Shown: positions 11,247-28,698 of the stretch, one piece after another
Position numbering within the stretch: the first letter of the stretch is position 1
How the letters are laid out: the number at the start of each line of letters is the position of its first letter
Virus record (IMG/VR): IMGVR_UViG_3300049460_000150
Coordinates: 15,113 to 79,112 of that record
DNA length: 64,000 nt
Origin: a virus
Reading direction: 5' to 3' (one strand)
The notes under the pieces: model-generated
What the model was told of the DNA's origin: nothing
Seen by the model: the letters and a program-made list of their open reading frames with translations, nothing else
The model's database searches: none
Program-made: the position numbers and the translations under genes

Positions 11247-12209
11247 ATGAGCACTTCTAGCATTCAACCAAGCCCACGCAAACCTTCCAAATCCACGAAG
11301 GCATCCGCGCTCCAAATTCCAGTTCCATCGACCCCAGCAAAAGGTCGTCGTAGTCAGGTATCACTCCCAGGCGAGGCACCGACCGGGGCAAAGCGTCCAA
11401 GCCCAGGCCAGCGCTCGCCCCGACTCAGTGGTATGCACGACCTGTCCTTCAACACATGCGTTAAAACGCTGTCTGGCATCACGATCTCGCGCCAGGGGCT
11501 TTTGCAACTGGAACTGGCCGTTGGTCTCGCCGTGTTCCTGGACTTCGGAGTTGCAGATCGTGCGGCCAAGACCATGCTGCAAGAAGTCTACTCAAAAGCG
11601 GGCTATGATTGTGCTGATTCGGCGGCCCCACACTATAAGACGGTCAATCGCCGGATTCAGGCCAGTGCGGCGCTGTTCGGCAAGATCAGCCTGGAGGTCC
11701 TAAACCACTGGGTAGACGGCAAGAAAGAGGGCAAGCTTTTGCAGGCCATCGCCCAGGAGATTGTGGAGTTTGGTTTCAAGTCCATGGACGACGTTCTGGA
11801 CCACGTTGGGCGCGCAAGCAATCGCGGGCCTGCCGTGGAGGGCCAGGAGGTTGGTGTCGCGGAGGCCGGTTCGGGCACTCGCGGCAGGAAGGCAAATACG
11901 GCCTTCGATATCCAGGTCGGAGACGACGTGGTTGTGCATCTGCCGCGCAAGCTGACGGAGGCAAATCTTGTCGAGCTGGCAACCAAAATCATGGCGCTGG
12001 CCCAGGTGATCCACGACCAGGAGGCTGCTGCTAAGGCCCAGGAGGCGGCAGACGCAGCAGCGGGTCTGATAGCACCGCTGGAGGCCCAGGACGGCGCTCA
12101 GGCGGTTCTGGGCGGTCCAGAGGGCGAGGCTCCCCCGGCAGGCGCGGGTGTTGGCCCGCAGGACGTTGCCGGTGACGTAGTGGTTGTCGGGGGCCGGAAA
12201 CGGCACTAA
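11247..12209 (+). CDS. unknown protein, paralogue A (shares a core domain with 12612-13436)
   Basis: 320 aa; core LELAV...AGY.C....YKTVNRR...F.KI...W...GF...DDVLD.VG is shared with the 12612 ORF; has its own promoter and terminator. Confidence 0.75.
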   Translation: MSTSSIQPSPRKPSKSTKASALQIPVPSTPAKGRRSQVSLPGEAPTGAKRPSPGQRSPRLSGMHDLSFNTCVKTLSGITISRQGLLQLELAVGLAVFLDFGVADRAAKTMLQEVYSKAGYDCADSAAPHYKTVNRRIQASAALFGKISLEVLNHWVDGKKEGKLLQAIAQEIVEFGFKSMDDVLDHVGRASNRGPAVEGQEVGVAEAGSGTRGRKANTAFDIQVGDDVVVHLPRKLTEANLVELATKIMALAQVIHDQEAAAKAQEAADAAAGLIAPLEAQDGAQAVLGGPEGEAPPAGAGVGPQDVAGDVVVVGGRKRH

Positions 12210-12406: not shown

Positions 12407-12611
12407 GGGATCAGGCCCGTTATATGGTGCAAAATGGTTGCAAAAATTTTTCAAAATTTTTTCCAAAACGTGAGACCTCTATACCCGACCCAAGCCCTCG
12501 CCACAAGCTCAAAAAAGCCCTATACTCTTAGTCATGCAGTCAGGTAAAGCAAGGTCCCGGAAACGGGACCACGCAAGGCCCCTGCTAACCCTATCAATCT
12601 GATATAAGGAA

Positions 12612-13436
12612 ATGACCATGAAAACCGCTGTCCAATCCACGCAAGGCCAAGGCACCACTACGTCCATCGACTATACCGTCCTGACGCTGGCAATCGCAAA
12701 CGCTGCACTGTCGCGCCGCGCCGCGCTGCACATGGAGCTGGCCGTATCGCTGATTCACTTCACGCAAGAAACGGGCGGCACTGACGCGACCGGCAAGGCC
12801 AACATGAAGGCCATCTACCATGGCGCGGGTTATCTGTGCATGGCTAAGAGTGACCGCGATTATAAAACGGTTAATCGTCGCTTGAATGCCATGGCTAAAG
12901 TGTTCGATAAAATCGGCTCCAGCACGGTCAACGAATGGATCGAGAACAAAGGCGATACAGATAGTATGCTCGCCTACGTGCAAACTGAATTGCTGGCGTA
13001 TGGCTTCGATACGTTGGATGATGTACTTGATTATGTTGGCGTAGAAACTAACAGAACCCGTGCGCCGCGCCAACCAGCCGCGCCGGTAGCAATCACGGTC
13101 CCGGAAACGGGACCAGCACCGGCAGCAGCAGCAGCGCCAGCGGTAGCAGTTCTGCCAACGTTCGACGCGGCACAAGTGCGCGCTGAAATGATGGCTAACA
13201 TGTCACCCGATGCGATCCGTGAATTCTGCGCGCAAATGCTGGCCGATGTCGCTGCACTGGAGCAAGCACAGATTGACGCTGAAACGGCAGCAGCAGCAGC
13301 GCCAGCAGCAGCAGCAGCAGCAGCAGCACCGGCAGCAGTCGTGCCGATGAATAGCAAGGCACGCAAACAGGCAAAGAAACAGGCGCATATCGCGGCGCAG
13401 CAGCAGCAGCAGCAGCAGCAGCGCGCAGCAGCATAA
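12612..13436 (+). CDS. unknown protein, paralogue B, with poly-Ala/poly-Gln tail
   Basis: 274 aa, AAGGA RBS; same core as 11247; 18-bp element upstream, inside and downstream. Confidence 0.8.
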   Translation: MTMKTAVQSTQGQGTTTSIDYTVLTLAIANAALSRRAALHMELAVSLIHFTQETGGTDATGKANMKAIYHGAGYLCMAKSDRDYKTVNRRLNAMAKVFDKIGSSTVNEWIENKGDTDSMLAYVQTELLAYGFDTLDDVLDYVGVETNRTRAPRQPAAPVAITVPETGPAPAAAAAPAVAVLPTFDAAQVRAEMMANMSPDAIREFCAQMLADVAALEQAQIDAETAAAAAPAAAAAAAAPAAVVPMNSKARKQAKKQAHIAAQQQQQQQQRAAA

Positions 13437-13517
13437 TGTGGCACGGTAGCGGTCCCGGAAACGGGACCGCATCGCAAGTAAATAACGGTCCCGTTAACGG
13501 GACAGGCACCGGAGGAA

Positions 13518-13640
13518 ATGTACATGCAATGGATCGTGTCTGAATTGGCCGTTTGGCCGCTGTCGCATTTTGTCGGGCTGGCGCTGGATGTCGCCGTGAT
13601 CGTTTGGCTGTGGAAGTCCACGCCTATCCGTTTGAAATAA
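13518..13640 (+). CDS. 40-aa hydrophobic membrane peptide (below the ORF-track cutoff)
   Basis: GGAGGA RBS; MYMQWIVSELAVWPLSHFVGLALDVAVIVWLWKSTPIRLK; bracketed by 18-bp elements. Confidence 0.7.
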   Translation: MYMQWIVSELAVWPLSHFVGLALDVAVIVWLWKSTPIRLK

Positions 13641-13674
13641 CGGTCCCGTTTCCTGGACCTTCACCGGAGGATTT

Positions 13675-13920
13675 ATGTCTGAATTCAACATGGCCGCATG
13701 GCTGAAAAAGCGTTTGGCTGATCCATCGCTTTCGACCACGGAGTATTTACATCACGAGCGTGCTTTGCAGGACATCGAATTTCGCCAGCGTGTGCTGGAC
13801 GCGGAGTATGCCCACAAGGAACGTATGCTGGCGCTGGAGGCCGAACAGGCTGATTTCCAGCGCCGCATCGGCGCGGCACATGCCAAATTGGACGCGCTCG
13901 GCGCTCCGCGTTTTTCGTGA
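13675..13920 (+). CDS. small coiled-coil hypothetical protein
   Basis: GGAGGA RBS, 81 aa, bracketed by 18-bp elements. Confidence 0.75.
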   Translation: MSEFNMAAWLKKRLADPSLSTTEYLHHERALQDIEFRQRVLDAEYAHKERMLALEAEQADFQRRIGAAHAKLDALGAPRFS

Positions 13921-13968
13921 ACAAAACGGTCCCGTTTCCGGGACCGGCACCGTTGAAAGGGTTTCCAA

Positions 13969-14349
13969 ATGGCTGGCATGAGCGACAATCCCCTCGTGGG
14001 GGACTACACCAAGGGCATTTCCAAGGGTCGGCAATACTTCGTGGAGTTGCGCACGAGGTTCTTCCTTGAGAAAGCTGACCTGAAACACGTCACTTTGGAC
14101 CTCCAAATGGGGCTGTTCAAGGAGGCAAAGGCGTTCACTGACGCTTTCGTGAAGCTGAATCACCTAGACCGTTTTGGGCCGGTGCCGGTCCCGAAAACGG
14201 GACCGAAAAGCGTTGCTTTGCGTTCAACTCCATTGGCGCAGAAGCAACGAGTTATCCACAGGCCGACTTCGACAATTGCGAAAAACGCAAGCCTGAAAGT
14301 TTCTGCGTTGCAAGACATTAGGTTGCTTTACATGCAACTTTGTGGATAA
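13969..14349 (+). CDS. hypothetical protein (3' end overlaps DnaA boxes)
   Basis: 126 aa after an 18-bp element; stop codon lies within the DnaA box at 14341. Confidence 0.5.
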   Translation: MAGMSDNPLVGDYTKGISKGRQYFVELRTRFFLEKADLKHVTLDLQMGLFKEAKAFTDAFVKLNHLDRFGPVPVPKTGPKSVALRSTPLAQKQRVIHRPTSTIAKNASLKVSALQDIRLLYMQLCG

Positions 14350-14472
14350 CTCGCGTTTTTCTGTGGATAGTTTTTCTGGCCCTGTGAATAACTTATTTTT
14401 GCCTAAAAAATAGGCAGAAAACAGCGTTTTTTGTGGATAAGTCGGTGGATAACGCTAAAAAGCTGTGGATAA
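14252..14472. promoter_or_regulatory. cluster of seven DnaA boxes
   Basis: TTATCCACA 14252(+); TGTGGATAA 14341, 14432, 14464; TGTGGATAG 14362; TGTGAATAA 14383; GGTGGATAA 14444 (all six on the minus strand). Confidence 0.85.
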
Positions 14473-14476
14473 ACCG

Positions 14477-15086
14477 GCTTGATAGTCTCATCCACTTTCG
14501 GGGCGAGCGCCTGAAATTTCGGGTTTTCTGTAACGAATGATGGGCCGAATGGTCTAGACCATTTGTGGTCATTTTGACAGGATTTTTGGGAGGATGATAC
14601 TATCATCCCCCCATTTGCTTGCACATCGGACGAGAAAATGCAAGCGCTAAATCTGCCTAAAAATGAGGCAAATCGTTGTGCAGCGCAATATTTTGGCCTT
14701 TGGATGATAGTCTCATCCCCTTTTGGGGGCCAGGACAGGCACCGGGCGATGGCGAGGTCCCGGAAACGGGACCGGAGCGGCGGGTAGGAACCACAGGGAG
14801 GGGATGCAGACGTGATGGCGATGAAATGGGCTTGGCTTTGCGCTCGATTTTGCGCTCGCTTTTGCGCTCGCTTTTGCGCTCGCTTTTGCGCTCGATTTCC
14901 GATCACTTTTGCCTTCGCTTTTGCGCTTGGTTTGTGGTAAGGGGACGGCACCGGCTTTTCCTTTCCTTTCGTTATCTTCTCTCTTTTTCTAATTACTCTT
15001 TAGGGTTGAAGGGGGGATGATAGTATAAAAGGGTAAAGAGAAAAGAGTTACTTTTAAGAAATAAAGAGAGGATGAGACTATCATCT
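14477..15086. repeat. 17-bp palindrome family GGATGAKA-S-TMTCATCC (iteron/operator-like)
   Basis: 14477-14493, 14592-14608, 14702-14718, 15070-15086, plus a half-site at 15015; sister copy at 7941. Confidence 0.8.
14836..14930 (+). repeat. 12-bp tandem repeat TTTTGCGCTCG(C/A) x5 plus degenerate copies
   Basis: seen directly. Confidence 0.9.
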
Positions 15087-15208
15087 AAAAAATTCTGGAC
15101 CCCTGCCGGTCCCGGTCCCGTCGCCAACTAATGCCCAATTTTTAGGCAGTGTTTTCGGTGCCTTTTCCGACCCCAAAAAGTTGCCGAAAAGTGCATAAAA
15201 TGCCCCTC

Positions 15209-15245
15209 AAATTTGCCTAAAATTTGCCTAAAACTTGCCTAAAAA
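15209..15245 (+). repeat. 11-bp tandem repeat AAATTTGCCTA x3
   Basis: seen directly; one-helical-turn period. Confidence 0.8.
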
Positions 15246-15701
15246 TTGAGCATTTCTCGTGCTGCCGATCCACATCCTGATCCACATCCACATCCAAAAT
15301 CTGCACCAATTTTCGTTAAGGGGAACATCCATGCGCAACGTCATTCCGACCCAAAAGCGGTCATCACTTTTAGCCTCCCTCACCCGCCCAATTTCCATAC
15401 CCGCCTGGGTGCCCATTTTCATCACCCTCACCAACATGGTTTCCATCACCATTTTGGTCATCGCCAACCGAGACATCTTCGCAGCATGGTTCCACGGCTA
15501 AATGCAAGGGGTAAAGCTGCCGCCCTCCCACTGCCCGGTCCCGTTTCCGGGACCCGCCACAACCCTGGCCCCAGCATGGACCCCCAAAGCGATCAGAATC
15601 GCCCACAGGGCGTTTTTGGCTTATAATGAGTACCGTTCCACCACTGGCTCCATAATCGCCACCTGAGCGGTTTTAGAGCCTTCTAACAAAGGAGTGACAA
15701 A

Positions 15702-16049
15702 ATGACATCCCACCACACTACCCCGGCCCCGGCCCCGGCCCCGGCCCGGGACGAGACCGTTTCCAACCCCCGCGCCCACCACCTCGGCCATCGCCTTTAC
15801 CTCTCCCCTTTGGCGGCGATTAAATCCATACTCCCGGCCACCACTTTTTACGCGCCCAATTTCGCCTCCAAATGCCAAGACACGCTCATGGAAATGACCG
15901 AACCATTCGATGGTGACGATTTGTTCGTCGCCCTCAACCTCCTGGCCCTCTCGGAAGGCATCCTGCTTTATCGCTTTTACGAGCCGCAAATTACCACCCT
16001 CAATCACGCCGTCACCATCATCAAATACTACGCAATAAGGAAGCCTTAA
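15702..16049 (+). CDS. hypothetical early protein
   Basis: GGAGTGACAAAATG start signal; first gene after the control region. Confidence 0.65.
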   Translation: MTSHHTTPAPAPAPARDETVSNPRAHHLGHRLYLSPLAAIKSILPATTFYAPNFASKCQDTLMEMTEPFDGDDLFVALNLLALSEGILLYRFYEPQITTLNHAVTIIKYYAIRKP

Positions 16050-16051
16050 AA

Positions 16052-16609
16052 ATGGCTATTTCAAGCCCAAAACCACCAAAGCCGCCGAAGCCAGCACCCA
16101 AAGTCAAGCCCACTGGCCGTAAGACCTCCTGGCCCACTAAAATTGACGCACCACCGGAGGCTCTTGCACTGTACGAAATGATCTCGTCCCTGCAACACAG
16201 CACGGCGTTCAAGACTTGCCACCCATATCAAGGTGCCACCAGCAAAAATACGGGCATTCCGATGTTCAAGTTTGAAGGGCGAGTCCATGCGATGCCTTAC
16301 ATCATCTGTTCCTTCATGGGAATCGAGTACGGCACCCGTAACTGCAAAACCTACGGCTGCATGAACCCTTTCCACTATTCGCCTCCACCGCGAATTTCGG
16401 GGGCGCAAATGGCCCATATTGACCTGCCAATGCCAACGCTGGCACCGGACTATCACGACCTCCTGGAATACTACGTCGAGGAAGTGGGAATACAGCCCAA
16501 TTACACCGCACTTCGCGCTGCAATTCCCACTGACGACATCAGTGACGCCGCCTTGCGGGCGGCAGTGCAAGCTTGGCCCGGTCCCGGTCCCGGAAACGAG
16601 ACCCTTTAA
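16052..16609 (+). CDS. protein with degenerate His-Me/HNH finger domain
   Basis: CHPYQG...G.P...H...CKTYGCMNPFH pattern. Confidence 0.55.
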   Translation: MAISSPKPPKPPKPAPKVKPTGRKTSWPTKIDAPPEALALYEMISSLQHSTAFKTCHPYQGATSKNTGIPMFKFEGRVHAMPYIICSFMGIEYGTRNCKTYGCMNPFHYSPPPRISGAQMAHIDLPMPTLAPDYHDLLEYYVEEVGIQPNYTALRAAIPTDDISDAALRAAVQAWPGPGPGNETL

Positions 16610-16631
16610 GTCCCCCACCCCAGGAGTAATC

Positions 16632-16976
16632 ATGAACGTCCTCACCTTTAGCACCATCGGGCTGCAAAATCCGAACGTCACCACCACCAATTACACCGCC
16701 ATCCAACACGCTGGCGTCGTCTTCACCCTCATCAACGGGGAAACGCACGTTTCCGTGGCCCAGCCGGACCAGAAACCGGACGGCTTTGCCGTGTATGGTC
16801 GCAGCCCAGAGGGTATGGCTGAGTGGATCGCTGATTTCGATAGCGAATTGCACTCGATGCTCTTTGCATCCACTCTGTCCTACGTCATGGGCGTGCCAAT
16901 CGAGGATAAAGTCTTCAACGTGGACGCCATTTCTGCGGCAATCTTCACCCTCAACAATCAAGGGCAACCGAACTAG
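16632..16976 (+). CDS. hypothetical early protein
   Basis: AGGAG RBS before ATG 16632. Confidence 0.65.
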   Translation: MNVLTFSTIGLQNPNVTTTNYTAIQHAGVVFTLINGETHVSVAQPDQKPDGFAVYGRSPEGMAEWIADFDSELHSMLFASTLSYVMGVPIEDKVFNVDAISAAIFTLNNQGQPN

Positions 16977-17034
16977 CCATGGGCTAAAGCCGTTTCCCCC
17001 TAATCTTCTAACCCTTTTCCTATAGGAATACTCA

Positions 17035-17322
17035 ATGAGTCTCGGTCAACGTAAAATGCGCGCCAAAGCTGATGCCTTGGCACCCTCTGTTCTGATCTGC
17101 GGCCACCGTGGCATGGAGTGGATCGTCATCACGGGTGGCGGTTTCAGCACCCATTTCTACTACGGCAAAGAGGGACCCAACGGTCCCGTTTCCGAGACCA
17201 ATACCGGCCTCTTGGCAAGCGTCTCGGACGACTTCAAACCATGGGCCAAGAAACTGCTCAAGGATTACAACAATTTGAGGACTCAAAATGAGAACAAAGT
17301 TCCAGTTAAGCGCCGAGCCTAA
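17035..17322 (+). CDS. hypothetical early protein
   Basis: AGGA RBS; contains an 18-bp element. Confidence 0.6.
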   Translation: MSLGQRKMRAKADALAPSVLICGHRGMEWIVITGGGFSTHFYYGKEGPNGPVSETNTGLLASVSDDFKPWAKKLLKDYNNLRTQNENKVPVKRRA

Positions 17323-17548
17323 CGAAGTGCATCTGATCCGCAACGCGAACTTTAAAAAGATTGCGGTGCTGATCCCATGCAATAAGGACGATGAGGTTCG
17401 TGAGCTGGTGTCCATGATCGAAAAAGGACCCTTTCCTGGCTTCCAAAACGTCACAAACTGCACAACCGCTGGCCCCAGTGTTCACCTCAGTTTTGCCAGC
17501 GCCGATGATGCTCGTGCTTTCTTCAACTTTATCTGGAGTACCCAATAA
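17288..17548 (+). CDS. hypothetical early protein
   Basis: GAGGA RBS; coupled to the next gene. Confidence 0.6.
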   Translation: MRTKFQLSAEPNEVHLIRNANFKKIAVLIPCNKDDEVRELVSMIEKGPFPGFQNVTNCTTAGPSVHLSFASADDARAFFNFIWSTQ

Positions 17549-17946
17549 TGGAACTCTATTACAAACCTGACGCCTCCTTTGTTGGCGTCGGCGCGACCAT
17601 CAAGACCCAATCCTGGGGCCTCGTTTACATCACCCAGATAGAATACCCAAAGGTTACGATCCGTTTCCAAACCGGACGCACCTTGACCAGCGATGCCGGG
17701 ACCTTTGGTTGCGAGTGGCGTAGGACGCAAGAGGAAATAGACGCGGCTGTCGCCGAAGCCCGTACTAATCGCCAGCCAACAATCTGGGCCGTTGCCGTGC
17801 CACTTTTGGTTGAGGGTCAAGACATCCATGAAGTGCGCCAAATCCTGGCCGAGTTGTTCGCAGGACTCCAGCACAGCAATGTGGTATCCATCAACACGGA
17901 AGTGTCGGGCATCAGTACCGGCGTTTATCGGGGAGACTTGGAATGA
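17548..17946 (+). CDS. hypothetical early protein
   Basis: GGAG RBS; TAATG coupling. Confidence 0.65.
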   Translation: MELYYKPDASFVGVGATIKTQSWGLVYITQIEYPKVTIRFQTGRTLTSDAGTFGCEWRRTQEEIDAAVAEARTNRQPTIWAVAVPLLVEGQDIHEVRQILAELFAGLQHSNVVSINTEVSGISTGVYRGDLE

Positions 17947-18173
17947 AAATCTTTGCCAATCTGTTCGGCTCTCGTGAACCACACGAAGCCATGGGGCGCA
18001 TGATCGAAGAAACGCTCGATGAATCACGAGCGCAACTGTTCCAGACCCGTCTGGAAAAGGAGCGCGTACTTAGCGATGAATCGAAGCTCATGCGCCGCAT
18101 CGAACGCCTCGAAAAAGAGGAAAAAGAACACGCCGAAAAGCGTGAAGCCCAAAGGGCCTCAACCCTGCTGTAA
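17943..18173 (+). CDS. small coiled-coil protein
   Basis: ATGA overlap; charged helix. Confidence 0.6.
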   Translation: MKIFANLFGSREPHEAMGRMIEETLDESRAQLFQTRLEKERVLSDESKLMRRIERLEKEEKEHAEKREAQRASTLL

Positions 18174-18224
18174 AGGGTCCCGGAAACGGGACCATAACAC
18201 CACCTTATCCAAAGGATAATAGCC

Positions 18225-18677
18225 ATGAACACCCTCTCCCAAGAGAACATCAAGAAAACCTACTTCGGTGTCGTCACAGATATCAGCGAGATTTTCGAGC
18301 GCTTCCTGTACTGCCACGATGCCACCTTTCACCCAGACCGTGGAAGCCTCACGCCGCGCCCTGAAGGCTTCTATTTCTGCCCCGGTCGCGGCACGACTGT
18401 CGAAACGTGGCTGAATTGGGGAAAGCCGCGCCCTAAATCGGGCAATCTGTCGGTCAAACCGACCTACAAAGTCGCCACCGCTGTCTTGAAGCGATCCATG
18501 GAGGGCAAAATCGGCGGTTTTCAGATCATACCCTGGGAACACGCTGGTCACGCCCTCATCATTGGCAGTGACAGCACGGGAATTGCCTCTGTTTGGCTGG
18601 CGTTTATCCCGCTGGACAAACTCCCGACGATCAATCAGGACAACACGCCCATCTGGGACGGCAAAGCCGATGTCTAA
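18225..18677 (+). CDS. hypothetical early protein
   Basis: AAGGA RBS after an 18-bp element. Confidence 0.65.
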   Translation: MNTLSQENIKKTYFGVVTDISEIFERFLYCHDATFHPDRGSLTPRPEGFYFCPGRGTTVETWLNWGKPRPKSGNLSVKPTYKVATAVLKRSMEGKIGGFQIIPWEHAGHALIIGSDSTGIASVWLAFIPLDKLPTINQDNTPIWDGKADV

Positions 18678-19107
18678 ACCGACTCCTGATAACCCCTCGC
18701 GCCGTGCCATGGCCCGCGTCCCGAATCCCCTGCCAATTCCCACCAATTGCCCGCACTGCGGCGCTCTGGTCTTTTGTGTAGGCAACCAAACGATCTATGG
18801 TAGGCCGTTTGGTGACTGGCCGTACGCCTACCAATGTGCACGCCCCTCCTGTGGGGCCTATGTCGGCCTGCATCCGTTCACAAACTACCCACTTGGCACG
18901 CTGGCGGATGAGCAAACTCGTCGCGCTCGAAGTCTCGCCAAGGATTACTTCAACCCACTGTGGAAAAACCGGGTCATGACCCGCACCGAAGCCTATGCCT
19001 GGCTTGCGACCGTCATGAATCTCCCACCTGAGCTGTGCCATTTCGGCCTGTTCAACGTGGACCAGTGCAGCGCCGCAGTTAAACACATCATGGAGCGTAC
19101 AAAATGA
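18670..19107 (+). CDS. zinc-finger protein (DUF3268-like)
   Basis: CPHCG...C...CGAYVGLHP...PLGTLAD...R.EAY.WLA..M.L....CHFG.F....C pattern typical of this phage family. Confidence 0.7.
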   Translation: MSKPTPDNPSRRAMARVPNPLPIPTNCPHCGALVFCVGNQTIYGRPFGDWPYAYQCARPSCGAYVGLHPFTNYPLGTLADEQTRRARSLAKDYFNPLWKNRVMTRTEAYAWLATVMNLPPELCHFGLFNVDQCSAAVKHIMERTK

Positions 19108-19640
19108 CTCAAAATTTCGACACAAAAGAGAACCGCGCCAAGCAGTTTAAGCGCGGCCTCCGCGATGCCAAGACTGCCCAAGTCCCGTTTGGTCAATCCA
19201 ACGAGCTGGGAACCGTCGCCACGAATCTGGATCGCGCCTACCGCAAGGGCTGGATTGCGGGGCGCAATGAAGATACCCACCTCACGCCGCCTATCCCGAA
19301 CATCAAAACATCGGGCCGTTTGCACTGGCTGAAATACTTCCACGAGTTGACGCCCAAAGAGCGGGCCGAACTCGATTACATCACCGATGACACCAACTCC
19401 TTCCTGCGCCACCAAGGTCATGTGTACGACCTGGGTGAGTTTTCGCGCATCATCCCGCCCGAAGAAATCGGCACGCGCCATCTGCATCCTATGTGCCTGC
19501 ACGACTGGCACGGCGACTACGACAACTGGGACGCCTACCTGGGCGATTCGGCTTTTAGCATGGTCCTCATCCGTTATGAGCGTGACAGCAGCGGCGACAT
19601 CAACGCCGAACGGGCCGTGATCGGACACGCATCATGGTAA
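19104..19640 (+). CDS. hypothetical early protein
   Basis: coupled ORF, 178 aa. Confidence 0.65.
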   Translation: MTQNFDTKENRAKQFKRGLRDAKTAQVPFGQSNELGTVATNLDRAYRKGWIAGRNEDTHLTPPIPNIKTSGRLHWLKYFHELTPKERAELDYITDDTNSFLRHQGHVYDLGEFSRIIPPEEIGTRHLHPMCLHDWHGDYDNWDAYLGDSAFSMVLIRYERDSSGDINAERAVIGHASW

Positions 19641-19903
19641 CGTACTTTGTTGAGGTGACGGACACCTACGGCGGCGAGGCAAACTACTGCTGGGCGCACC
19701 ACTTCAAAGTGGAAGCAAAAACCGAGCGCGGCGCTGTCCGTAAAGTGCGCCGTGAAATGGAGCTTGGTTCTTCTCGCTGCGTGATGGATGCTGGCGACAT
19801 GCAACGCTGGGACATTAAAGGCGCTGCCATTTGCATGTTCGTGGAGTGGTACGACGAGACCCGTCACGGACTCGATAAATACGCTAAACAGCGTGACCTG
19901 TAA
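19634..19903 (+). CDS. hypothetical early protein
   Basis: EVTDTYGGEANYCW motif; stop abuts an 18-bp element. Confidence 0.65.
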   Translation: MVTYFVEVTDTYGGEANYCWAHHFKVEAKTERGAVRKVRREMELGSSRCVMDAGDMQRWDIKGAAICMFVEWYDETRHGLDKYAKQRDL

Positions 19904-19946
19904 CGGTCCCGTTTCCGGGACCTTTCCACTTCAAAGGAGTAACACC

Positions 19947-20135
19947 ATGAAATCACAGAATGGTTACGTGTTTTTCTACGGCAGCAAGCGCGTCGAACTG
20001 TACGCCGACAGCCTGTATGCGGCAAAGGTGGCGGCAATTGCGCATTTCAAAGCGCCGAAGTCGAAGCAACACATGGTCCACGGCGCACTCGCTGAAAAAG
20101 CGGGAAGCGCCGTGATCCACACGCCAACGGAATAG
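19947..20135 (+). CDS. 62-aa hypothetical protein bracketed by 18-bp elements
   Basis: AAGGAG RBS; elements at 19905 and 20134. Confidence 0.7.
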   Translation: MKSQNGYVFFYGSKRVELYADSLYAAKVAAIAHFKAPKSKQHMVHGALAEKAGSAVIHTPTE

Positions 20136-20185
20136 TCCCGTTTCCGGGACCTCACCTCACCACAACCTTTAAACGGAGTGACAAA

Positions 20186-20479
20186 ATGAACATAGATAAA
20201 ATCATGAAAGCCTGGACGAATGAACTTCAGGAAGCCGCAGTTATGGAAGGCTGGGATTTGTTTACTGCCACCGATGGAAGTCCTGTTCAAGTGCAGCGCT
20301 TCGATGACGCTGAGGAATTGCCATTCGGTGCGCACCATTTAACGTGCGATGCTGAGGCAATGATGATCGTCAGGACCGGCACCGGGCCACATCATGCCGT
20401 TGCACGCAAAATACTGCACGACCATTTCCCCGCCGAGTGGGCCATTATGAACGCCGCTATATTCAGTCCAAAGGAGTGA
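20186..20479 (+). CDS. hypothetical early protein
   Basis: GGAGTGACAAAATG start signal. Confidence 0.7.
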   Translation: MNIDKIMKAWTNELQEAAVMEGWDLFTATDGSPVQVQRFDDAEELPFGAHHLTCDAEAMMIVRTGTGPHHAVARKILHDHFPAEWAIMNAAIFSPKE

Positions 20480-20483
20480 CAAA

Positions 20484-20795
20484 ATGAACGAGAAATTGAT
20501 AGCGATACTGCGTGCCATTTGCGAAGACACGGATGGTGCCTGCGCCGCCTACAGCCACAGCAAATCTGCCTACGTCCACATCGTAACGGAGGACAACATC
20601 AACGAGGCCAAGGAACTCCTGGCCGAGATCGACCAGACTTACGAGGTCGTCAAGTGCTTTTCCGGCGACACGCCGCAGGAAGTCACGCACACCGGCCTGA
20701 CCAAAGATGAGGCCAAGGACATCGTAGGCGGAGACGACACCAGCGGCACCCTCCCCACGGGTGAGAAGTGGATGCTCATCTTCCGTGCGGAGTAA
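20484..20795 (+). CDS. hypothetical acidic early protein
   Basis: GGAGTGACAAAATG start signal. Confidence 0.7.
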   Translation: MNEKLIAILRAICEDTDGACAAYSHSKSAYVHIVTEDNINEAKELLAEIDQTYEVVKCFSGDTPQEVTHTGLTKDEAKDIVGGDDTSGTLPTGEKWMLIFRAE

Positions 20796-20797
20796 CC

Positions 20798-21061
20798 ATG
20801 GCCTCCGAACGCTTCATTGAGACCACTTACTACTTCCACAAAGAGGTAGTCAAGATCACTCGCGCCGCCCACCCTGAAAATGCTTTGCCAAACGCGGTGC
20901 GGCACCTGCTGCAAAACGACTACGGTGCCACCGTGGTCGAGGTCACGGACCTCCAATACGGCGAACTGCTGGCCGTGGCAACGTACAAGATCGGCGAGAA
21001 ATTGCAGATCATTTTCGAAAAGAACCCGCACCGTCCTGTGTGCATAAAGTGGGAGATTTGA
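20798..21061 (+). CDS. hypothetical early protein
   Basis: GGAG RBS. Confidence 0.6.
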   Translation: MASERFIETTYYFHKEVVKITRAAHPENALPNAVRHLLQNDYGATVVEVTDLQYGELLAVATYKIGEKLQIIFEKNPHRPVCIKWEI

Positions 21062-21062
21062 C

Positions 21063-21320
21063 ATGGCAACTTACGAAGAACTGGACTCTCGCGTCAAGGT
21101 GGAATTTGTCGCCGCCGCACTGGCTGAAAAAGAGCCTGAAATGCTGGCTAAAGTCTTTACTGTTTGCGCCCGCCATTTTCATCATGGCAGGGACATCAGC
21201 GTGTTCTGTTCCGAGCGCAAGAAAGATGGCTGGCTGGAATGGCTGGTGAAAGTGGATGGCCGTATCACCATCGGCGTGATCCAGCGCACCGTCGGTGCTG
21301 AATTCGAACTGCATTCCTAA
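21063..21320 (+). CDS. hypothetical early protein
   Basis: GGAG RBS; followed by an 18-bp element. Confidence 0.65.
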   Translation: MATYEELDSRVKVEFVAAALAEKEPEMLAKVFTVCARHFHHGRDISVFCSERKKDGWLEWLVKVDGRITIGVIQRTVGAEFELHS

Positions 21321-21377
21321 CCCACGGTCCCGGTCCCGTTTTCGGGACCACACGCACACATTTTTTCGGAGAATAAT

Positions 21378-21887
21378 ATGAACCAAGTCCACATCATGCG
21401 TACCACCCTCGTCAACGAAGTAATGCGCCTCGCAAGCCTGTTCGCCACGGCCCGTGTCCGTCACCACGTTGTCAACGCGGGCCTCAACGGCAATTCCGCC
21501 GAGACCAAAGAGGGCGTTCAAAAGCGTGTTATCAAGGCTGAAAACGAGCTGCGCGGCTATGCCAATGGTTTGGCTCTCCTTTCGGAGAACAATGAGGTCG
21601 CCAAAGCCCTCATGCGCAAGCAGGAACTCATCGCCGACATCGGCTTTGAAGTCGGCCACTGGTGGGAGCGCACCACCAACAGCGGTTGCAGCAAGATCAT
21701 GGAACATTGCGACGGCTCGCGCGGCCTGATGCAACTGGTTGTGGAATGGGCCGGTGAATTCGACACGTTCTGGGAAGCGTTGGACGAGGACGACGACCGC
21801 CGCGAAAACTACATCGAAGAAATCGTTAATTTCACGGCGAAAAAGATCGCCGCGTTGGCCCTGGACGCCGGGGTCGATTCTAAATAA
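21378..21887 (+). CDS. hypothetical protein bracketed by 18-bp elements
   Basis: GGAG RBS; elements at 21332 and 21896. Confidence 0.7.
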   Translation: MNQVHIMRTTLVNEVMRLASLFATARVRHHVVNAGLNGNSAETKEGVQKRVIKAENELRGYANGLALLSENNEVAKALMRKQELIADIGFEVGHWWERTTNSGCSKIMEHCDGSRGLMQLVVEWAGEFDTFWEALDEDDDRRENYIEEIVNFTAKKIAALALDAGVDSK

Positions 21888-21935
21888 CACATAAGGGTCC
21901 CGTTTCCGGGACCTTTCCATATCAGGGAGAACGTC

Positions 21936-22151
21936 ATGAAATACCTACTCATTGCCCTACTGGCTGGTTGCGCACAACAACAGCCTATGCTTTACAACCC
22001 CTACAAGACGCCTGCAATGGCGCAGCAAGACAACCTGGAATGCCGCTATGAAGCGATGAAGGTTGAGGCCACGGTACAGAACGCGGCAATGGGCGTTTTC
22101 GCTCGCCAAGACGCCATGCGTATGTGCCTTCAAGTAAGGGGATACAAATGA
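21936..22151 (+). CDS. small lipoprotein
   Basis: MKYLLIALLAGC signal with LAGC lipobox; two further Cys. Confidence 0.7.
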   Translation: MKYLLIALLAGCAQQQPMLYNPYKTPAMAQQDNLECRYEAMKVEATVQNAAMGVFARQDAMRMCLQVRGYK

Positions 22152-22474
22152 GCGTCAAGACCGTAACAACCTCCGACCTCGAAGCTCGCATCCAAGAGCT
22201 GGAGGCCAAGGTCATGGATGACGACGAGCTGGAAGAGTTTCAAGCTCTCACCGATCTCCGCCACGACCTCGACTACTGCTGGCGTCAACCAGCAACGCTA
22301 ATCCGCGAGGCTGATTTCGTGGAATACGCCATGGAATTCCTGTACGAAGTCGGCGACCTCAAGAAAGGCGGCGTGGCCGACTCCTGCATCGACCAAGACG
22401 AGGCAGCGCGCATTGTCGAACAGGACTACCGTTTGTGCGTCCACGACGGTGAAGATTATCTCGTGAGGGCCTAA
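22148..22474 (+). CDS. acidic protein, ArdA-like antirestriction candidate
   Basis: D/E-rich; DFVEYAMEF...IDQDEAARIVEQDY resembles the ArdA C-terminal pattern. Confidence 0.45.
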   Translation: MSVKTVTTSDLEARIQELEAKVMDDDELEEFQALTDLRHDLDYCWRQPATLIREADFVEYAMEFLYEVGDLKKGGVADSCIDQDEAARIVEQDYRLCVHDGEDYLVRA

Positions 22475-22476
22475 CC

Positions 22477-22866
22477 ATGGCACGCATCTCAAACAGCCTG
22501 TCTCCGGCGCGTAAAGGGGACAAGATCGTTATCGAAGTCGGAAGCGAGCGCTATTGGGGCAACACCATCGCGCTTGCCAAGGCCGACATGAAGGAGCGCA
22601 ACCGGGGCGTGGTCACGGCCCCATCTTTCAAGGTCTGGTCTTCCGGCACAAGCGCCCCGCCTATTCTGCTGCAAGAGAACGGGCAAAAGCAGCCGACATC
22701 GGCGCTGCCGCTGTCGGTGGTCTGTCCGCTGTGCAAAGCGGGCCTCGCCCGACCCTGTATCAATGACAAGGGTGTCGTACTGCTGGACAAGCCACATAAA
22801 ACACGCATTCTGCTGGCGCGTAAAATGCTGCTGGCACCATCGAAAAAACGGAGCAAGAAAAAATGA
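22477..22866 (+). CDS. basic zinc-finger protein
   Basis: CPLCKA...PC...H..R motif, Lys-rich tail. Confidence 0.55.
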   Translation: MARISNSLSPARKGDKIVIEVGSERYWGNTIALAKADMKERNRGVVTAPSFKVWSSGTSAPPILLQENGQKQPTSALPLSVVCPLCKAGLARPCINDKGVVLLDKPHKTRILLARKMLLAPSKKRSKKK

Positions 22867-23552
22867 AAACCTCTCTCTACATCTGCGAGAAAGTCCACCG
22901 CGACTATCGCCCCATCGGCCCGTATTACCCACCCGTTACAGAGGTGGAGGACTACGAAAACACCGTCAGCATCCGCGCTGCCATGAAGGGCGCGGGACCG
23001 TACAAGACATGCACCTATCAAGGCCCTCTGTCAGCCTGGAAGGGCAAGACAGCGCTCACCGTCCCGCTGGTCGCGGTGCAATTCGATGACCAGGGCCAGT
23101 ACATGGCCTACGGCTGGCACCTGTTCAATGCCAACGACTGGAAGGTCCCGGAAACGAGACCTCTTTTCCAGGCGTTTGCCAGCGCCGTCGTGGCGCTTGC
23201 CAACTGCATCAAGAACGGCAATCAAGAATGGTATCGCATTTGGAACGATTGCCTCGACGGCTGGTGCAAGAACTACATGCCGAGCGGTTCTGGCTTCGAC
23301 AACGGCACGCAAATCGACCTGGAAGCGTCAGGCGAACACAAGCTGGTCTTCAACGTACACTACCACCACATGGACGAGCATGGTTGCTACGACGGCTGGA
23401 CCGAGCATCAGGTGATCGTGACGCCAAGCCTTTTGTTCGGCTTTACGCTGCGCATCACCGGCCCGAACCGCAACGAGATCAAGGACTTCATCTCGGACAC
23501 CTTCCATATCGCACTTTCCCAACAGGTGAATCCACACGAGTACAAGCCATGA
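22863..23552 (+). CDS. hypothetical protein (possibly a two-domain fusion joined at an 18-bp element)
   Basis: 229 aa; element at 23144 encodes VPETRP. Confidence 0.65.
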   Translation: MKTSLYICEKVHRDYRPIGPYYPPVTEVEDYENTVSIRAAMKGAGPYKTCTYQGPLSAWKGKTALTVPLVAVQFDDQGQYMAYGWHLFNANDWKVPETRPLFQAFASAVVALANCIKNGNQEWYRIWNDCLDGWCKNYMPSGSGFDNGTQIDLEASGEHKLVFNVHYHHMDEHGCYDGWTEHQVIVTPSLLFGFTLRITGPNRNEIKDFISDTFHIALSQQVNPHEYKP

Positions 23553-23920
23553 ACCAGCAACGTTTCCCATCGGTGGTGAAACTGATGGAAGTCTTCAACG
23601 ACGAAGCCACGGCACTCATGGCGCGAAAGGTGATGGAAATGTCGCGGGGCGAACTGCTGCGCACTGATGCAGGACGTTTCCGTGCCAACGAGTGCCTTAA
23701 TCCCCCGCCGCTGAATGATCTCCGTATGTACGTTATGAACAGCCTTGACCCTGGCCTGTTCGGTATCGAAACTGAGGAAATCAAGAGCGAGTATTTCGAC
23801 TACCTCAATGCCGGGGATGCGTATAACCCGACGGTCATCCTGTGGCGCGGAAAGTTTCGCGTCCAGGATGTGGCAACTTTCCGCGAACGAAATGAAAGGC
23901 TGGTGCGCAATGAAAACTAG
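23549..23920 (+). CDS. hypothetical early protein
   Basis: ATGA coupling; YLNAGDAY motif. Confidence 0.65.
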   Translation: MNQQRFPSVVKLMEVFNDEATALMARKVMEMSRGELLRTDAGRFRANECLNPPPLNDLRMYVMNSLDPGLFGIETEEIKSEYFDYLNAGDAYNPTVILWRGKFRVQDVATFRERNERLVRNEN

Positions 23921-24272
23921 CCACCAAAGCGGCAAGGCTATGCTTAGTGTAGAGAGGGATGGTGACGATCTGTACGCCAGCGCTTTCGCCCTCACTGGTT
24001 TGCATACAGAAGCCGCGCATTGTTGGTTTGGTGATGCCGTCTCTGATCTAGCCGTTTTCCACGACTGGATTCCGGCACAGTGCTTTCGTATGAAGGAGGG
24101 GGACAAGATGATCTTCAAGGTCAACTTTGAACAGACCTACTACCAAGGGGATGGTTACACCAGTGACGACGATGAACTTTTGGTGTTCACCAAGGCGGTG
24201 AAGTTGTATCACAAGCGCGGGGCCAAAGCGTCCCGTAAATCGCTCAAGAAATATTACAGGAGTGCGCAATGA
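23910..24272 (+). CDS. hypothetical early protein
   Basis: coupled ORF. Confidence 0.55.
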   Translation: MKTSHQSGKAMLSVERDGDDLYASAFALTGLHTEAAHCWFGDAVSDLAVFHDWIPAQCFRMKEGDKMIFKVNFEQTYYQGDGYTSDDDELLVFTKAVKLYHKRGAKASRKSLKKYYRSAQ

Positions 24273-24724
24273 ATCCTAAATACCAAAGGGGGCCTGACGG
24301 CAACTGCATCCCCGGCGATGCCGTCACGTATGCAGCGTATGGTCCCATCCCCGAAGCTTACGCTTTCCAAAACGAGGTGGGCGGCGTCGAAGTTCCCGCC
24401 ATCGTCCACCACTGGGGCTGGTCCACGACCTTTGGCCGCTGGGGCGCTGTGGTCACGTTCAAGAGCGGATGGCATGGCTTTACGTGGCCTTTCATCCGCC
24501 TGGGCGAATTCCCTTTCCAGACTGTGGAAGTGGAACCATTCCCAGGCTTAACCTTGACCATTTACGGTCGCGTCAAGGCCGTCACCCAGCCGGAGAAACT
24601 TCAGCAGGGTTACTACGTCGCCAAAGGCGGCATACCGATCCCTCGCTCGGAGCTGTACCGCGACGAGCGCGATGCCATCGAAAAAATCCTGCATGAAAGG
24701 TATCCCGAACATGCCAACCTTTAG
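24269..24724 (+). CDS. hypothetical early protein
   Basis: AGGAG RBS, ATGA coupling. Confidence 0.6.
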   Translation: MNPKYQRGPDGNCIPGDAVTYAAYGPIPEAYAFQNEVGGVEVPAIVHHWGWSTTFGRWGAVVTFKSGWHGFTWPFIRLGEFPFQTVEVEPFPGLTLTIYGRVKAVTQPEKLQQGYYVAKGGIPIPRSELYRDERDAIEKILHERYPEHANL

Positions 24725-24920
24725 CACAGGCAGATCGCCACCGCTCGTATCGCATGTCTTTGGACAGCCAAGGCAGCGCTACATCCAATGCCCTCATTGC
24801 TGTGAGCAAGTCTTTCTTCCAGCGGGGGCGTTTCGCGGCCAACAATTTACGCACACCGATGGGAAATGCGGCGGCGTTTTTGAGGTCTACTGGAACGCTA
24901 AAATTTGCGTTCGAACCTGA
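24711..24920 (+). CDS. small zinc-ribbon protein
   Basis: CPHC...H...CGG. Confidence 0.5.
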   Translation: MPTFSTGRSPPLVSHVFGQPRQRYIQCPHCCEQVFLPAGAFRGQQFTHTDGKCGGVFEVYWNAKICVRT

Positions 24921-24931
24921 AAGGAAACGCC

Positions 24932-25117
24932 ATGGACATCATCCGCCATTACGGAATGACCCGCGAAGAGTTTGCCAGCAAGCTTGGCAAGCATCCGTCC
25001 TGCTTTGAAAATTTCTTACGGCCTTTGTGCAATAACGGCAGCTATCACGCTTACACCACGCGGGATAAAGCGCTTGTCAATTGCCCAGAATGCCTAAAAC
25101 GTTTGAAGGGGAAGTGA
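24932..25117 (+). CDS. small Cys-motif protein
   Basis: AAGGA RBS; PLC...VNCPECL. Confidence 0.55.
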   Translation: MDIIRHYGMTREEFASKLGKHPSCFENFLRPLCNNGSYHAYTTRDKALVNCPECLKRLKGK

Positions 25118-25118
25118 A

Positions 25119-25439
25119 ATGAAAGCAGTCGTAGAATTTGGCCGACCACAATCGGCCCTCCCCGCTGGCGCACCGTGCGGCGTTTCAGGCCATCAGACTT
25201 GCGAATCACTGGCGGCGGCTAACCACCTCGCCCTGCATTTGCGCCATGTGCTGGGGAATCGGCAGCATGAGTACCACGGCCCCGATGACTTTCTCGTGTC
25301 GCGGGATAACCCGCGCATTGTGTGGTGGGCCAATGACCATTCCTGCTGGGTGGCAGTGACGATTTTCAAGCCTAATTACGAACCTGGACCTTACGCGGCC
25401 CAGGCCGACAAATTTGCCAAAATAGCGAAGGAGCTGTAA
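25119..25439 (+). CDS. hypothetical early protein
   Basis: coupled ORF. Confidence 0.55.
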   Translation: MKAVVEFGRPQSALPAGAPCGVSGHQTCESLAAANHLALHLRHVLGNRQHEYHGPDDFLVSRDNPRIVWWANDHSCWVAVTIFKPNYEPGPYAAQADKFAKIAKEL

Positions 25440-26023
25440 TGCGCAACGTACCAACACCAATCCAGTATCAGGCGCTCATTGATTATGCCGCCGCTAACGG
25501 TTTCTACTGGAAGCACAAACTCAGCACGGCGTGGATGAACGGCACCGACACGCCTTTGCTGCGCCAAATACGCAACGAATTCGGACCCGGCTGGCTCACG
25601 AAATTCAAGCTGCGCACCTACCGCCTGGAACAGATTTCGGAAGTGGCGAAACACTACATCCTTGCCGCCATCTGGGCCGACGCGCCGGAAGGCACGCAAC
25701 CTCGCGCCTCGCAAGAGACCCAGGAGGAAGCCTTTCGCCAGTGCGCAAAGTTCATCATGGAATGCGGCCCTCTGTTCGACGCTGCCATGGCGCGTTTCGA
25801 ACGTGGCTACGGCACGCATCCAGACGCGGGCAGTGCAGAGGCCGCTTTCGGCCACGACTTCTGGCTGACGCGGCAAGGCCATGGGGTTGGCTTCTGGGAC
25901 CGCAAGGAACTGGGCAAGGAACTGGGACAAGCTTTGACCGACGCGGCCCATGCAAGGCGCGAGGCCAATTACGAGTTCTACCGTGGCTGGTTCTACTTGA
26001 GGGCTGATTATGAAGCCCGGTGA
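25439..26023 (+). CDS. hypothetical early protein
   Basis: AAGGAG RBS; GHDFWLTRQGHGVGFWDR motif. Confidence 0.7.
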   Translation: MRNVPTPIQYQALIDYAAANGFYWKHKLSTAWMNGTDTPLLRQIRNEFGPGWLTKFKLRTYRLEQISEVAKHYILAAIWADAPEGTQPRASQETQEEAFRQCAKFIMECGPLFDAAMARFERGYGTHPDAGSAEAAFGHDFWLTRQGHGVGFWDRKELGKELGQALTDAAHARREANYEFYRGWFYLRADYEAR

Positions 26024-26201
26024 TACCATCACGTTCCGCCATTACGGCGTCGAAAAGACTGAGACCATCGGGCGCATCAGTCCTGATGGCACAATCGTCT
26101 ACACGACGATGTGCCGCTGGCTGCACAAGGAAAGCATTTTGTCCGTCAACAACGTTCCCGTTTCCGGGACCTCAACCAAGGAGAAGAAAGATGAAATTTG
26201 A
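26010..26201 (+). CDS. small hypothetical protein
   Basis: GAGG RBS; contains an 18-bp element. Confidence 0.55.
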   Translation: MKPGDTITFRHYGVEKTETIGRISPDGTIVYTTMCRWLHKESILSVNNVPVSGTSTKEKKDEI

Positions 26202-27632: not shown

Positions 27633-27671
27633 GGTCCCGGAAACGGGACCCTCTAATATAAGGGGAATTTT

Positions 27672-28686: not shown

Positions 28687-28698
28687 GGAGCCTCAAAA

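Follow-up and report, generated by a model that had tools for sequence, protein, structure and literature searches.

Lineage-specific palindromes as possible operator-like sites at early-gene junctions of a JWF/Lumi-like siphophage

Introduction

When small genes of no evident relationship follow one another, each behind the same short inverted repeat, are they cassettes gathered at a common site, or does the repeat serve the genes that it separates? The question is raised by a 64,000-nucleotide stretch of viral DNA (the window: bases 15113–79112 of record IMGVR_UViG_3300049460_000150, a complete virus genome of 79,112 bp), in which an earlier note drew attention to three consecutive small genes sharing a palindrome-containing junction and likened them to a cassette array built by repeated insertion. 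The genome is that of a JWF/Lumi-like siphophage – its closest isolates are Xylophilus phage Lumi (primase 62% identical), Achromobacter phages JWF and 2-1, and Caulobacter phage Seuss – and its + strand carries all genes from about 8 kb to 55 kb.

The three junctions prove to be three of about 20 equivalent sites spread over 17 kb, and relatives of the phage carry palindromes of their own at comparable places. The reading that we favor, and to which we give about an even chance, treats the palindromes as operator-like sites for a phage DNA-binding protein that evolves fast; they would also provide short homologies for the exchange of gene modules.

A genome-specific palindrome confined to the early block

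The element is a dyad-symmetric sequence of 18 bp, specific to this genome, with 7-bp arms (GGTCCCG and CGGGACC) around an A/T-rich centre of 4 bp. Searching the window for GGTCCCG-N4-CGGGACC with at most two mismatches returned 22 matches against 0.34 expected, and no shuffled sequence gave more than two. With at most one mismatch there are 20 copies in the whole genome (a control pattern gave none), all of them between window positions 12553 and 29252 and none in the remaining 62 kb. The copies outside the three junctions of the earlier note are listed here, together with the block that contains them; no strand is assigned to any of these features.

12553–29252: early small-gene block; contains all 20 good copies, a two-mismatch copy lying beyond it at 31955
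12553–12570: perfect, centre GAAA; 41–47 nt 5′ of the g35 start and just 3′ of a promoter-like site at 12498–12526
13097–13114: perfect; inside g35, where it encodes VPETGP; carries the AGCACCGG extension
13451–13468: perfect, GAAA; 14 nt past the g35 stop; first of a tandem pair with 36-bp spacing
14187–14204: perfect, AAAA; in the variable linker of g38; inverted extension CCGGTGCC upstream
14756–14773: perfect, GAAA; within a 1.35-kb non-coding, origin-like region
15537–15554: perfect, TTTC; intergenic
16586–16603: CGAGACC arm; extra GGTCCC half-site upstream; at the 3′ end of g43, 28 nt before the g44 ATG
17182–17199: CGAGACC arm; inside g45
18176–18193: perfect; 2 nt past a stop codon, 31 nt before the g49 ATG
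19905–19922: perfect; 1 nt past a stop codon, 24 nt before the g53 ATG
20134–20151: one mismatch; overlaps the g53 stop codon, 34 nt before the g54 ATG
21332–21349: perfect, TTTT; extra GGTCCC half-site upstream; 28 nt before the g58 ATG
21896–21913: perfect; 22 nt before the g59 ATG; downstream flank like that of the 19905 copy
23144–23161: CGAGACC arm; inside g62
26154–26171: one mismatch; at the 3′ end of g69, 19 nt before the g70 ATG
27633–27650: perfect; directly past the g71 TAG stop, 21 nt before the g72 ATG
29235–29252: perfect, TTTT; directly past a TAA stop, 19 nt before the g77 ATG

The placement of the copies was judged against our own codon-usage gene calls. Thirteen of 21 are intergenic, mostly in gaps of 34–57 nt with a few in longer non-coding gaps, and those in the short gaps start 0–14 nt past the upstream stop and end 15–34 nt short of the following ATG. 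A further three run into the 3′ end of the preceding open reading frame (ORF) and still lie 19–34 nt ahead of the next ATG; five (13097, 14187, 17182, 23144 and the two-mismatch copy at 31955) are well inside coding sequence. All remaining junctions of the block are ATGA-type overlaps of 1–14 nt, and the palindromes thus separate groups of translationally coupled genes. The centres read GAAA in eight copies, TTTC in eight, TTTT in two, AAAA in one and TTAA in one; that GAAA and TTTC are about equally frequent although the block's genes are all on the + strand suggests a function independent of orientation.

The element has the marks of neither a sigma-70 promoter nor, on the + strand, an intrinsic terminator. 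There are 12 promoter-like sites of the sigma-70 type where 9.9 would be expected, none of them associated with a copy; a sigma-70 promoter with the palindrome as spacer was rejected on the ground that the flanks lack −35 and −10 hexamers. No copy has a T tail on the + strand, whereas the genuine terminators, after the primase gene (11031) and after g32 (12238), each have one; a minus-strand terminator was likewise rejected, T-rich minus-strand tails being inconsistent among copies. Rfam gave no match for the element. Nor does the motif occur in multiple copies in IMG/VR or in 185,579 GTDB species genomes, where there are only single matches at chance level, none of them related to this phage; among the matches listed for JGI metagenome contigs, too, there were only single chance-level ones.

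Two minor irregularities may be recorded. Directly 5′ of two copies, at 16580–16585 and 21326–21331, stands an extra GGTCCC half-site (GGTCCCGGTCCCG), which resembles duplication of a half-site by slippage. The right-arm variant CGAGACC is common to the copies at 16586, 17182 and 23144 and lies on the + strand in all three, irrespective of how the centre is oriented; it places C·A on the + strand and G·T on the − strand.

The three junctions and their genes

The junction sequences quoted in the earlier note are present and lead to ATGs at 13518, 13675 and 13969: AAATAACGGTCCCGTTAACGGGACAGGCACCGGAGGAAATG terminates in the first of these ATGs, AAATAACGGTCCCGTTTCCTGGACCTTCACCGGAGGATTTATG in the second, and AAAACGGTCCCGTTTCCGGGACCGGCACCG (13923–13952) is followed by the third. 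It had been claimed that the conserved unit is longer than the palindrome and that each unit precedes an unrelated small gene. Both observations are borne out, in that stop/AAC, palindrome, CACCG and ribosome-binding site are common to the three junctions and the genes that follow have no mutual relation.

13480–13520, + strand: junction unit 1; AAATAAC, palindrome 13487–13504 (one mismatch, TTAA), GGCACCGGAGGA (ribosome-binding site), g36 ATG
13518–13640, + strand: g36; hydrophobic ORF of 40 aa between the AAATAACGGTCCCGTT direct-repeat copies (13480, 13635)
13635–13677, + strand: junction unit 2; AAATAAC, palindrome 13642–13659 (one mismatch, TTTC), TTCACCGGAGGA, g37 ATG
13675–13920, + strand: g37; 81 aa, with conserved homologues in uncultured relatives
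13923–13971, + strand: junction unit 3; AAAAC, palindrome 13928–13945 (perfect, TTTC), GGCACCG, weak ribosome-binding site, g38 ATG
13969–14349, + strand: g38; 126 aa, conserved family with N-terminus MAGMxDNPLVGDYTKGISKG

Junctions 1 and 2 are the more alike, sharing the exact 16-bp direct repeat AAATAACGGTCCCGTT and, downstream, CACCGGAGGA, which contains the Shine–Dalgarno sequence; junction 3 has AAC, the palindrome and GGCACCG in common with them. The same one-sided extension accompanies the copy inside g35 (AGCACCGG) and occurs inverted at 14187, where CCGGTGCC precedes the palindrome. Common to five copies at 13.1–14.2 kb, the extension thus marks a local subfamily. The sequence GGCACCGG is mildly enriched (10 matches against 3.5 expected).

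Two of the three genes are real and conserved. Homologues of g37 and g38 lie on contigs inferred to be those of the primases from 66% and 82% relatives (primase homologues at 75–85% identity exist), and JWF has a g38-like ORF (MSQDPLIG...) at the same position. Searches of phage records with g38 (tblastn) and with the region (megablast) found no match, and neither did scans of IMG/VR with single proteins and a g38 profile. On the evidence of these homologues, two of the supposed cassettes look like backbone genes and not like recent inserts. Only g36, flanked by the 16-bp direct repeat, looks like a junction duplication when judged by its sequence.

The earlier note saw no recombinase in the window, a statement that can be extended to the whole genome: neither PF00589 (Phage_integrase) nor Resolvase was matched, and a search for tyrosine and serine recombinases and for single-strand annealing proteins found no Phage_integrase, Resolvase, RecT or ERF match. 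The controls for this search were all positive, that for PF00589 matching in 14 of 14 genomes. Among 89 further phage proteins scanned against Pfam there was no transposase, HUH enzyme, ParA, ParB or helix-turn-helix repressor.

Each lineage has its own palindrome

The relatives have repeated palindromes of their own 3′ of the primase gene and almost never in the 10 kb 5′ of it; in two whole relative genomes the copies are again only in the early block. The sequences are as follows.

L043, the nearest relative (primase 65%): GTCCC-N5-GGGAC
L007 clade: GGTTCA-N3-4-TGAACC
L026: AAAGTGCGAC-N-GTCGCACTTT
L051: GTGCAG-N2-3-CTGCAC
L066 and L040: CTACTGCCAA-N-TTGGCAGTAG
L021: AATTGCGCAC-N-GTGCGCAATT
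L054: TCTCCAAA-N-TTTGGAGA
L059: TGTTAGA-N-TCTAACA
Lumi: TTACTAG-N-CTAGTAA
JWF: GTTCGTTACGAAC

Although the sequences differ, the placement is similar: 30 of 76 copies lie at most 45 nt upstream of a Shine–Dalgarno sequence and start codon, against about 14% for random positions. The palindrome may also change while the gene beside it persists – g53 (19947–20135) has a homologue in L026, 55% identical, that is followed by L026's own palindrome.

At nine orthologous sites in four genomes of the L007 clade, pairwise identity is 97.6% in the arms, 86% in the centre and 78–86% in the 15-nt flanks. Moreover, imperfect half-sites (GGTGCAA opposite TTGAACC) are conserved without compensatory change. 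Conserved arms and uncompensated half-sites together indicate selection on the sequence itself and not on pairing. In L026, L066 and L021 only one base separates the two arms of the palindrome.

A gene bracketed by palindromes

In ten lineages – this phage, L043, the L007 clade, L026, L051, L066/L040, L021, L054, Lumi and JWF – an ORF of 230–300 aa lies 0.6–2.6 kb downstream of the primase gene between copies of that lineage's own palindrome, with one to three copies 15–56 nt before its ATG, often as a tandem pair 27–39 bp apart, and another past its stop. Its counterpart here is g35.

12612–13436, + strand: g35; 274 aa, with a helical N-domain, poly-A/Q linker and C-terminal helix, ending in -AAA; candidate binding protein

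Its sites are at 12553 (upstream), 13097 (internal) and 13451/13487 (the downstream tandem pair), and the first junction of the earlier note is thus one half of that pair. The bracketed proteins are mostly dissimilar by BLAST. What they have in common is an architecture, in which a helical N-domain is joined by a low-complexity linker to a C-terminal helix bearing the motif S..D/A..R.F.AQ..LADV (SPDAIREFCAQMLADV in g35, SDADRQFFAQTILADV in L007). They also nearly always end in -AA (L007, L021, L026, L043, L051, L054 and L066 loci examined), an ending found in only two of the 132 predicted proteins of this phage.

The N-domain of g35 belongs to a family with 173 cluster representatives and is predicted to be all-helical (predicted local distance difference test score, pLDDT, of 92); the N-domain of the L026-type protein is also confidently predicted to be helical. 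A fold search with both AlphaFold N-domain models placed a small dimeric repressor, RptR (9r2z), at rank 1–2 with Z of 4.9 and 5.2. These values fall below the noise for helical proteins, and we treat the match, made with predicted models, as a weak lead only. Foldseek found nothing for g35 in the PDB and only uncharacterised phage proteins in BFVD, and a protein atlas was uninformative. The g35 family as a universal binder of these palindromes was considered and rejected: among the 80 relatives it was found only in this phage and in L043.

Some features of the locus are noted in passing. The Ala-Ala tail can be likened to an ssrA-type ClpXP tag (the paralogues of g32 type, 11247–12209, end in -H), and the phage encodes a ClpX-like AAA+ protein (26811–27632, phrog_5534). 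Runs of GCA/CAG triplets in g35 (13120–13430) encode poly-Ala and poly-Gln, and in the L026 analogue a palindrome stands beside a similar CAG run. The JWF locus (L013, 14273–15539) reads palindrome GGTTCGTTACGAACC, a 233-aa ORF ending in -VTA, a terminator, palindrome AAGTTCGTTACGAACTT and the g38-like ORF. The true terminal repeat of Lumi, 2298 bp, spans the bracketed gene and its palindromes just 3′ of the primase gene, and the palindrome region here may therefore sit in or near the physical end of the genome. The "direct terminal repeat" of the present record is only 127 bp (bases 1–127 and 78986–79112 of the record, G000:C1) and is likely to be an assembly overlap.

Discussion

The palindrome could be read as duplex DNA or as an RNA hairpin. 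Conservation at the level of sequence, variants without compensation and palindromes that reach a single central base favor recognition of duplex DNA by a symmetric protein; copies inside coding sequence, of which there are five, are tolerable for DNA sites. On the reading that we favor, the element would be recognized as double-stranded DNA by a symmetric (dimeric) phage protein, most likely the bracketed g35-type protein, which would autoregulate and damp or time transcription of the early block much as operators or roadblocks scattered in a transcription unit might do (compare the L5 stoperators). Protein and site would co-evolve, giving each lineage its peculiar sequence. As a by-product, the repeated units of 18–40 bp (stop, palindrome, ribosome-binding site) would offer short homologies at which general recombination may duplicate junctions and swap or delete modules, and this could account for the direct repeat around g36 and for the shared flanks.

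Several observations sit uneasily with operator-like sites. The candidate itself is elusive: g35 has no Pfam, PHROG or PDB sequence match, no DNA-binding fold or family is recognised in it (the best VIA-align Z, 5.4, is noise for helical proteins), and hhalign found no N-domain homology between g35 and the L007/L026 family. Six other IMG/VR phages with g35-family genes have no dispersed palindromes, and most palindrome-bearing relatives lack the family; any binder would then be fast-diverging or a non-homologous positional analogue. L051 and the L007 clade show a variation of 1 nt in the spacing of the arms, which a rigid dimer would tolerate poorly and a hairpin well. Finally, the copies form stable RNA hairpins, and their tight placement between stop codon and Shine–Dalgarno sequence would suit a role at the RNA level too.

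Of the alternatives, we regard a role at that level as possible, if rather doubtful. The palindrome would here be an intercistronic hairpin that acts by structure alone or is bound by a phage RNA-binding protein tuning translation of the next gene; it could block 3′ exonucleases, stabilise the 5′ end after processing, or serve as an attenuator lacking a U-tract, like the stem-loop half of the promoter-early stem-loops (PeSLs) of T4-type phages, which are terminators in a like genomic context (PMC2839356). Uniformity within the genome would then stem from duplication of junctions and not from sequence-specific selection. Perfect copies indeed fold with −13 to −21 kcal/mol, retained in a 120-nt mRNA context; the stem is identical in either orientation, so that mixed orientation is tolerated, and the position 0–14 nt past the stop and 15–34 nt before the ATG, the similar placement in relatives (30/76) and the variable spacers of L051 and L007 are all as a hairpin would have them. 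The variants tell against it. All seven arm variants in the window break a pair on the mRNA strand, leaving C·A, C·U or A·C mismatches and no G·U, and none is compensated; the imperfect half-sites conserved in the L007 clade would weaken the hairpin, yet the arms there are 97.6% conserved; and the palindromes of L026, L066 and L021, running to one central base, are unusable by a hairpin to that extent. Perfect copies occur within coding sequence (13097, 14187), T tail and Rfam family are both wanting, and a loop that is GAAA or UUUC about equally often gives no scope for loop-specific recognition.

Might the palindromes instead be a recombination scar or a selfish repeat with no regulatory role, spread by insertions, deletions and swaps or by a tiny mobile element? 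We think this unlikely, although there is evidence of recombination to explain: the 16-bp direct repeat around g36, five local copies with common flanks (one inverted), the half-sites adjoining two copies, a hypervariable block with almost no gene in common with the 80 relatives, and SbcCD-like, RecU-like and FEN nucleases encoded by the phage. In the L007 clade a replacement hot spot with four alleles (188–558 nt) has its right edge at most 2 nt from a palindrome, and indels between repeats are on record in Cluster O mycobacteriophages (PMC4351075) and likewise for PeSLs (PMC2839356). Scars would not be expected to show strong purifying selection on their arms at orthologous sites, nor would they bracket one gene in ten lineages, which speaks for function. 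Most indel breakpoints in the L007 clade are away from palindromes, g37 and g38 are conserved and not recent inserts, no transposase, HUH or recombinase family was found, and the exact motif is never multi-copy elsewhere (IMG/VR, GTDB genomes and the metagenome matches listed). Less probable still are maintenance sites – parS-like centromeres of a plasmid-like prophage, or sites for its replication initiator, to which the g35-type protein would bind next to the origin-like region. An -AA ending, such as several bracketed proteins have, is known from some labile replication and partition proteins; an integrase is missing from the genome, a cluster of DnaA boxes adjoins the bracketed gene, relatives turn up among assembled isolate genomes as separate contigs of about 80 kb (judging by IMG isolate-type identifiers), and JWF is reported to be temperate (PMC9959647). 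But 20 sites between stop codons and ribosome-binding sites over 17 kb are unlike known centromeres or origins, ParA and ParB families were not found, and the origin-like region already has a 17-bp palindrome family of its own. Least credible of all, and in our view very nearly dismissed, is an integron-like, site-specific array with attC-type sites and a dedicated recombinase. It has in its favor small unrelated genes with a conserved inverted repeat ahead of each; small promoterless genes between inverted-repeat sites are what integron arrays also present. There, however, attC sites are variable, cassette-borne, in one orientation and served by IntI, while here there is one 18-mer in mixed orientation, not cassette-specific and found also inside genes, in a complete genome without tyrosine or serine recombinase. 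The lack of recombinase, RecT and ERF, the conservation of g37 and g38 and the L026 homologue of g53 with L026's palindrome leave the cassette array unsupported.

What then remains of repeated insertion at a junction, as the earlier note proposed? The palindromes do mark module boundaries, and the g36 direct repeat and the shared flanks agree with the proposal; a dedicated insertion system is not supported. The direct repeat, the flanks and the L007 hot spot point to a secondary role as short homology for module exchange, and the material is best read as giving no support to a dedicated insertion machine, recombination being a side effect of regulatory punctuation.

The operator-like reading can be carried a step further, if only tentatively. 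In a widespread group of proteobacterial siphophages of about 80 kb (relatives of JWF, Lumi and Seuss) a labile, fast-evolving, AA-tailed regulator of about 270 aa and the lineage's palindrome might constitute an immunity-like specificity pair, with the junctions doubling as a substrate for gene swaps. The regulator would be encoded beside the primase and have an unclassified helical DNA-binding domain, and its palindrome would have been copied to every module boundary of the early block.

Dispersed dyad repeats are as a kind already known, and the family described here is an added member. The closest published parallel is the 17-bp repeat TGTTCGG-N3-CCGAACA of Cluster O mycobacteriophages, of which there are 34 copies, many intergenic, with a TTT/AAA centre either way round, indels between copies and no known function (Cresawn et al. 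2015, PMC4351075). Both families have near-invariant arms of 7 bp and a short, A/T-rich, asymmetric centre in both orientations. Both run to tens of copies per siphophage genome (30-odd there, about 20 here), many in short operon gaps (13 to 16 of the 20 here are at junctions) and some intragenic. In both the motif is not found in host or other phage genomes, indels are tied to recombination between copies and a dimeric binder is suspected. The present family differs in its proteobacterial JWF/Lumi-like lineage, its sequence, its 4-bp centre and its confinement to a 17-kb early block; differing palindromes in relatives and a bracketed gene for a candidate binder are undescribed for Cluster O.

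The PeSLs (Arbiol et al. 2010, PMC2839356) resemble our junctions in their composite make-up – stop codon, stem-loop, Shine–Dalgarno sequence, start – and in their occurrence in hyperplastic, ORFan-rich regions, where recombination between copies shuffles small genes. Here the possible signs of such recombination are the g36 direct repeat and the one L007 hot spot that ends at a palindrome, other breakpoints in that clade being elsewhere. PeSLs have a strong sigma-70 promoter, variable G/C stems and terminator activity, whereas our junctions have one nearly invariant palindrome without promoter consensus or T tail. Cluster A stoperators (L5 gp71; PMC9283540, PMC6550527) are likewise repressor-type sites present in tens in short intergenic gaps within transcription units, and their sequence varies by sub-lineage and co-evolves with the binder. 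They are 13 bp long, asymmetric, monomer-bound and oriented with transcription; the sites here, symmetric, orientation-neutral and restricted to the early block, are not stoperators in the strict sense.

An autoregulated repressor whose palindromic operator is repeated in intergenic regions has precedents in the conserved inverted repeats of the Streptomyces phage phiC31 and in the OB sites of KorB from RK2. In those systems the binder is known and its binding has been shown, whereas we have a candidate only and detected no helix-turn-helix or ParB family. Repetitive extragenic palindromic (REP) sequences and their RAYTs offer a further comparison, REPs too being short extragenic palindromes in both orientations that are specific to one genome; here, in contrast, there is no HUH/Y1 transposase among 89 phage proteins, and none of 185,579 species genomes has the motif in several copies. 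Papers on Lumi and TCUP2199 do not mention such repeats, and the replacement of the palindrome from lineage to lineage, together with the bracketed AA-tailed gene, appears to be undescribed.

If the regulator–palindrome pair tentatively proposed above exists, regulation and gene flux would be coupled through a single element of 18 bp. An attractive but wrong idea, that of a phage integron, gives way to a testable one: a short palindrome, in a version particular to each lineage, organizes the ORFan-rich early region across an entire group of phages, with an easily located candidate gene for its binder alongside. Should binding be shown, the control of early genes in these phages would become simple to approach, immunity or exclusion among relatives would have a possible basis, and there would be a concrete mechanism for the gain and loss of small accessory genes at standard junctions – a question open for the Cluster O repeats and partly answered for the PeSLs.

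Setting of the early block in the genome

The phage encodes a large terminase, a primase-helicase of Prim-Pol/D5 type, a family A DNA polymerase, an SNF2 helicase, an NAD ligase, a tape measure protein and tail fibres, besides the nucleases already named. An ORF of 1861 aa was considered as a phage RNA polymerase (N4-type hairpin promoters) and rejected: it encodes the tape measure protein, and an RNA polymerase was looked for without success. The small early proteins are nearly all ORFans for which no annotation was possible; it is in the interval from the primase gene to that for deoxynucleoside monophosphate (dNMP) kinase that almost no gene is shared with Lumi or the 80 IMG/VR relatives.

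Directly after g38, whose 3′ end runs into it, lies a cluster of at least five DnaA boxes (TTATCCACA / TGTGGATAA; 14249–14472) that is a probable replication origin. The second palindrome family, GGATGATA-N-TATCATCC, is found at 7941, in the divergent terminase/primase promoter region, and several times at 14477–14720 in the origin-like region; it is kept in the 65% relative L043 (GCGATGATACTATCATCGC, L043 position 15104), even though the 18-bp element is different in that phage. A near-identical translation-initiation region, GGAGTGACAAAATG, precedes at least four early genes (15691, 20175, 20473 and 30884), some of them at palindrome-free junctions. Far outside the block, at 53907–54146, a protein of 79 aa with a C4 zinc-finger motif (CEVC...CTSC) resembles TraR/DksA-type factors and possibly matches the Pfam family Phage_zn_bind_8.

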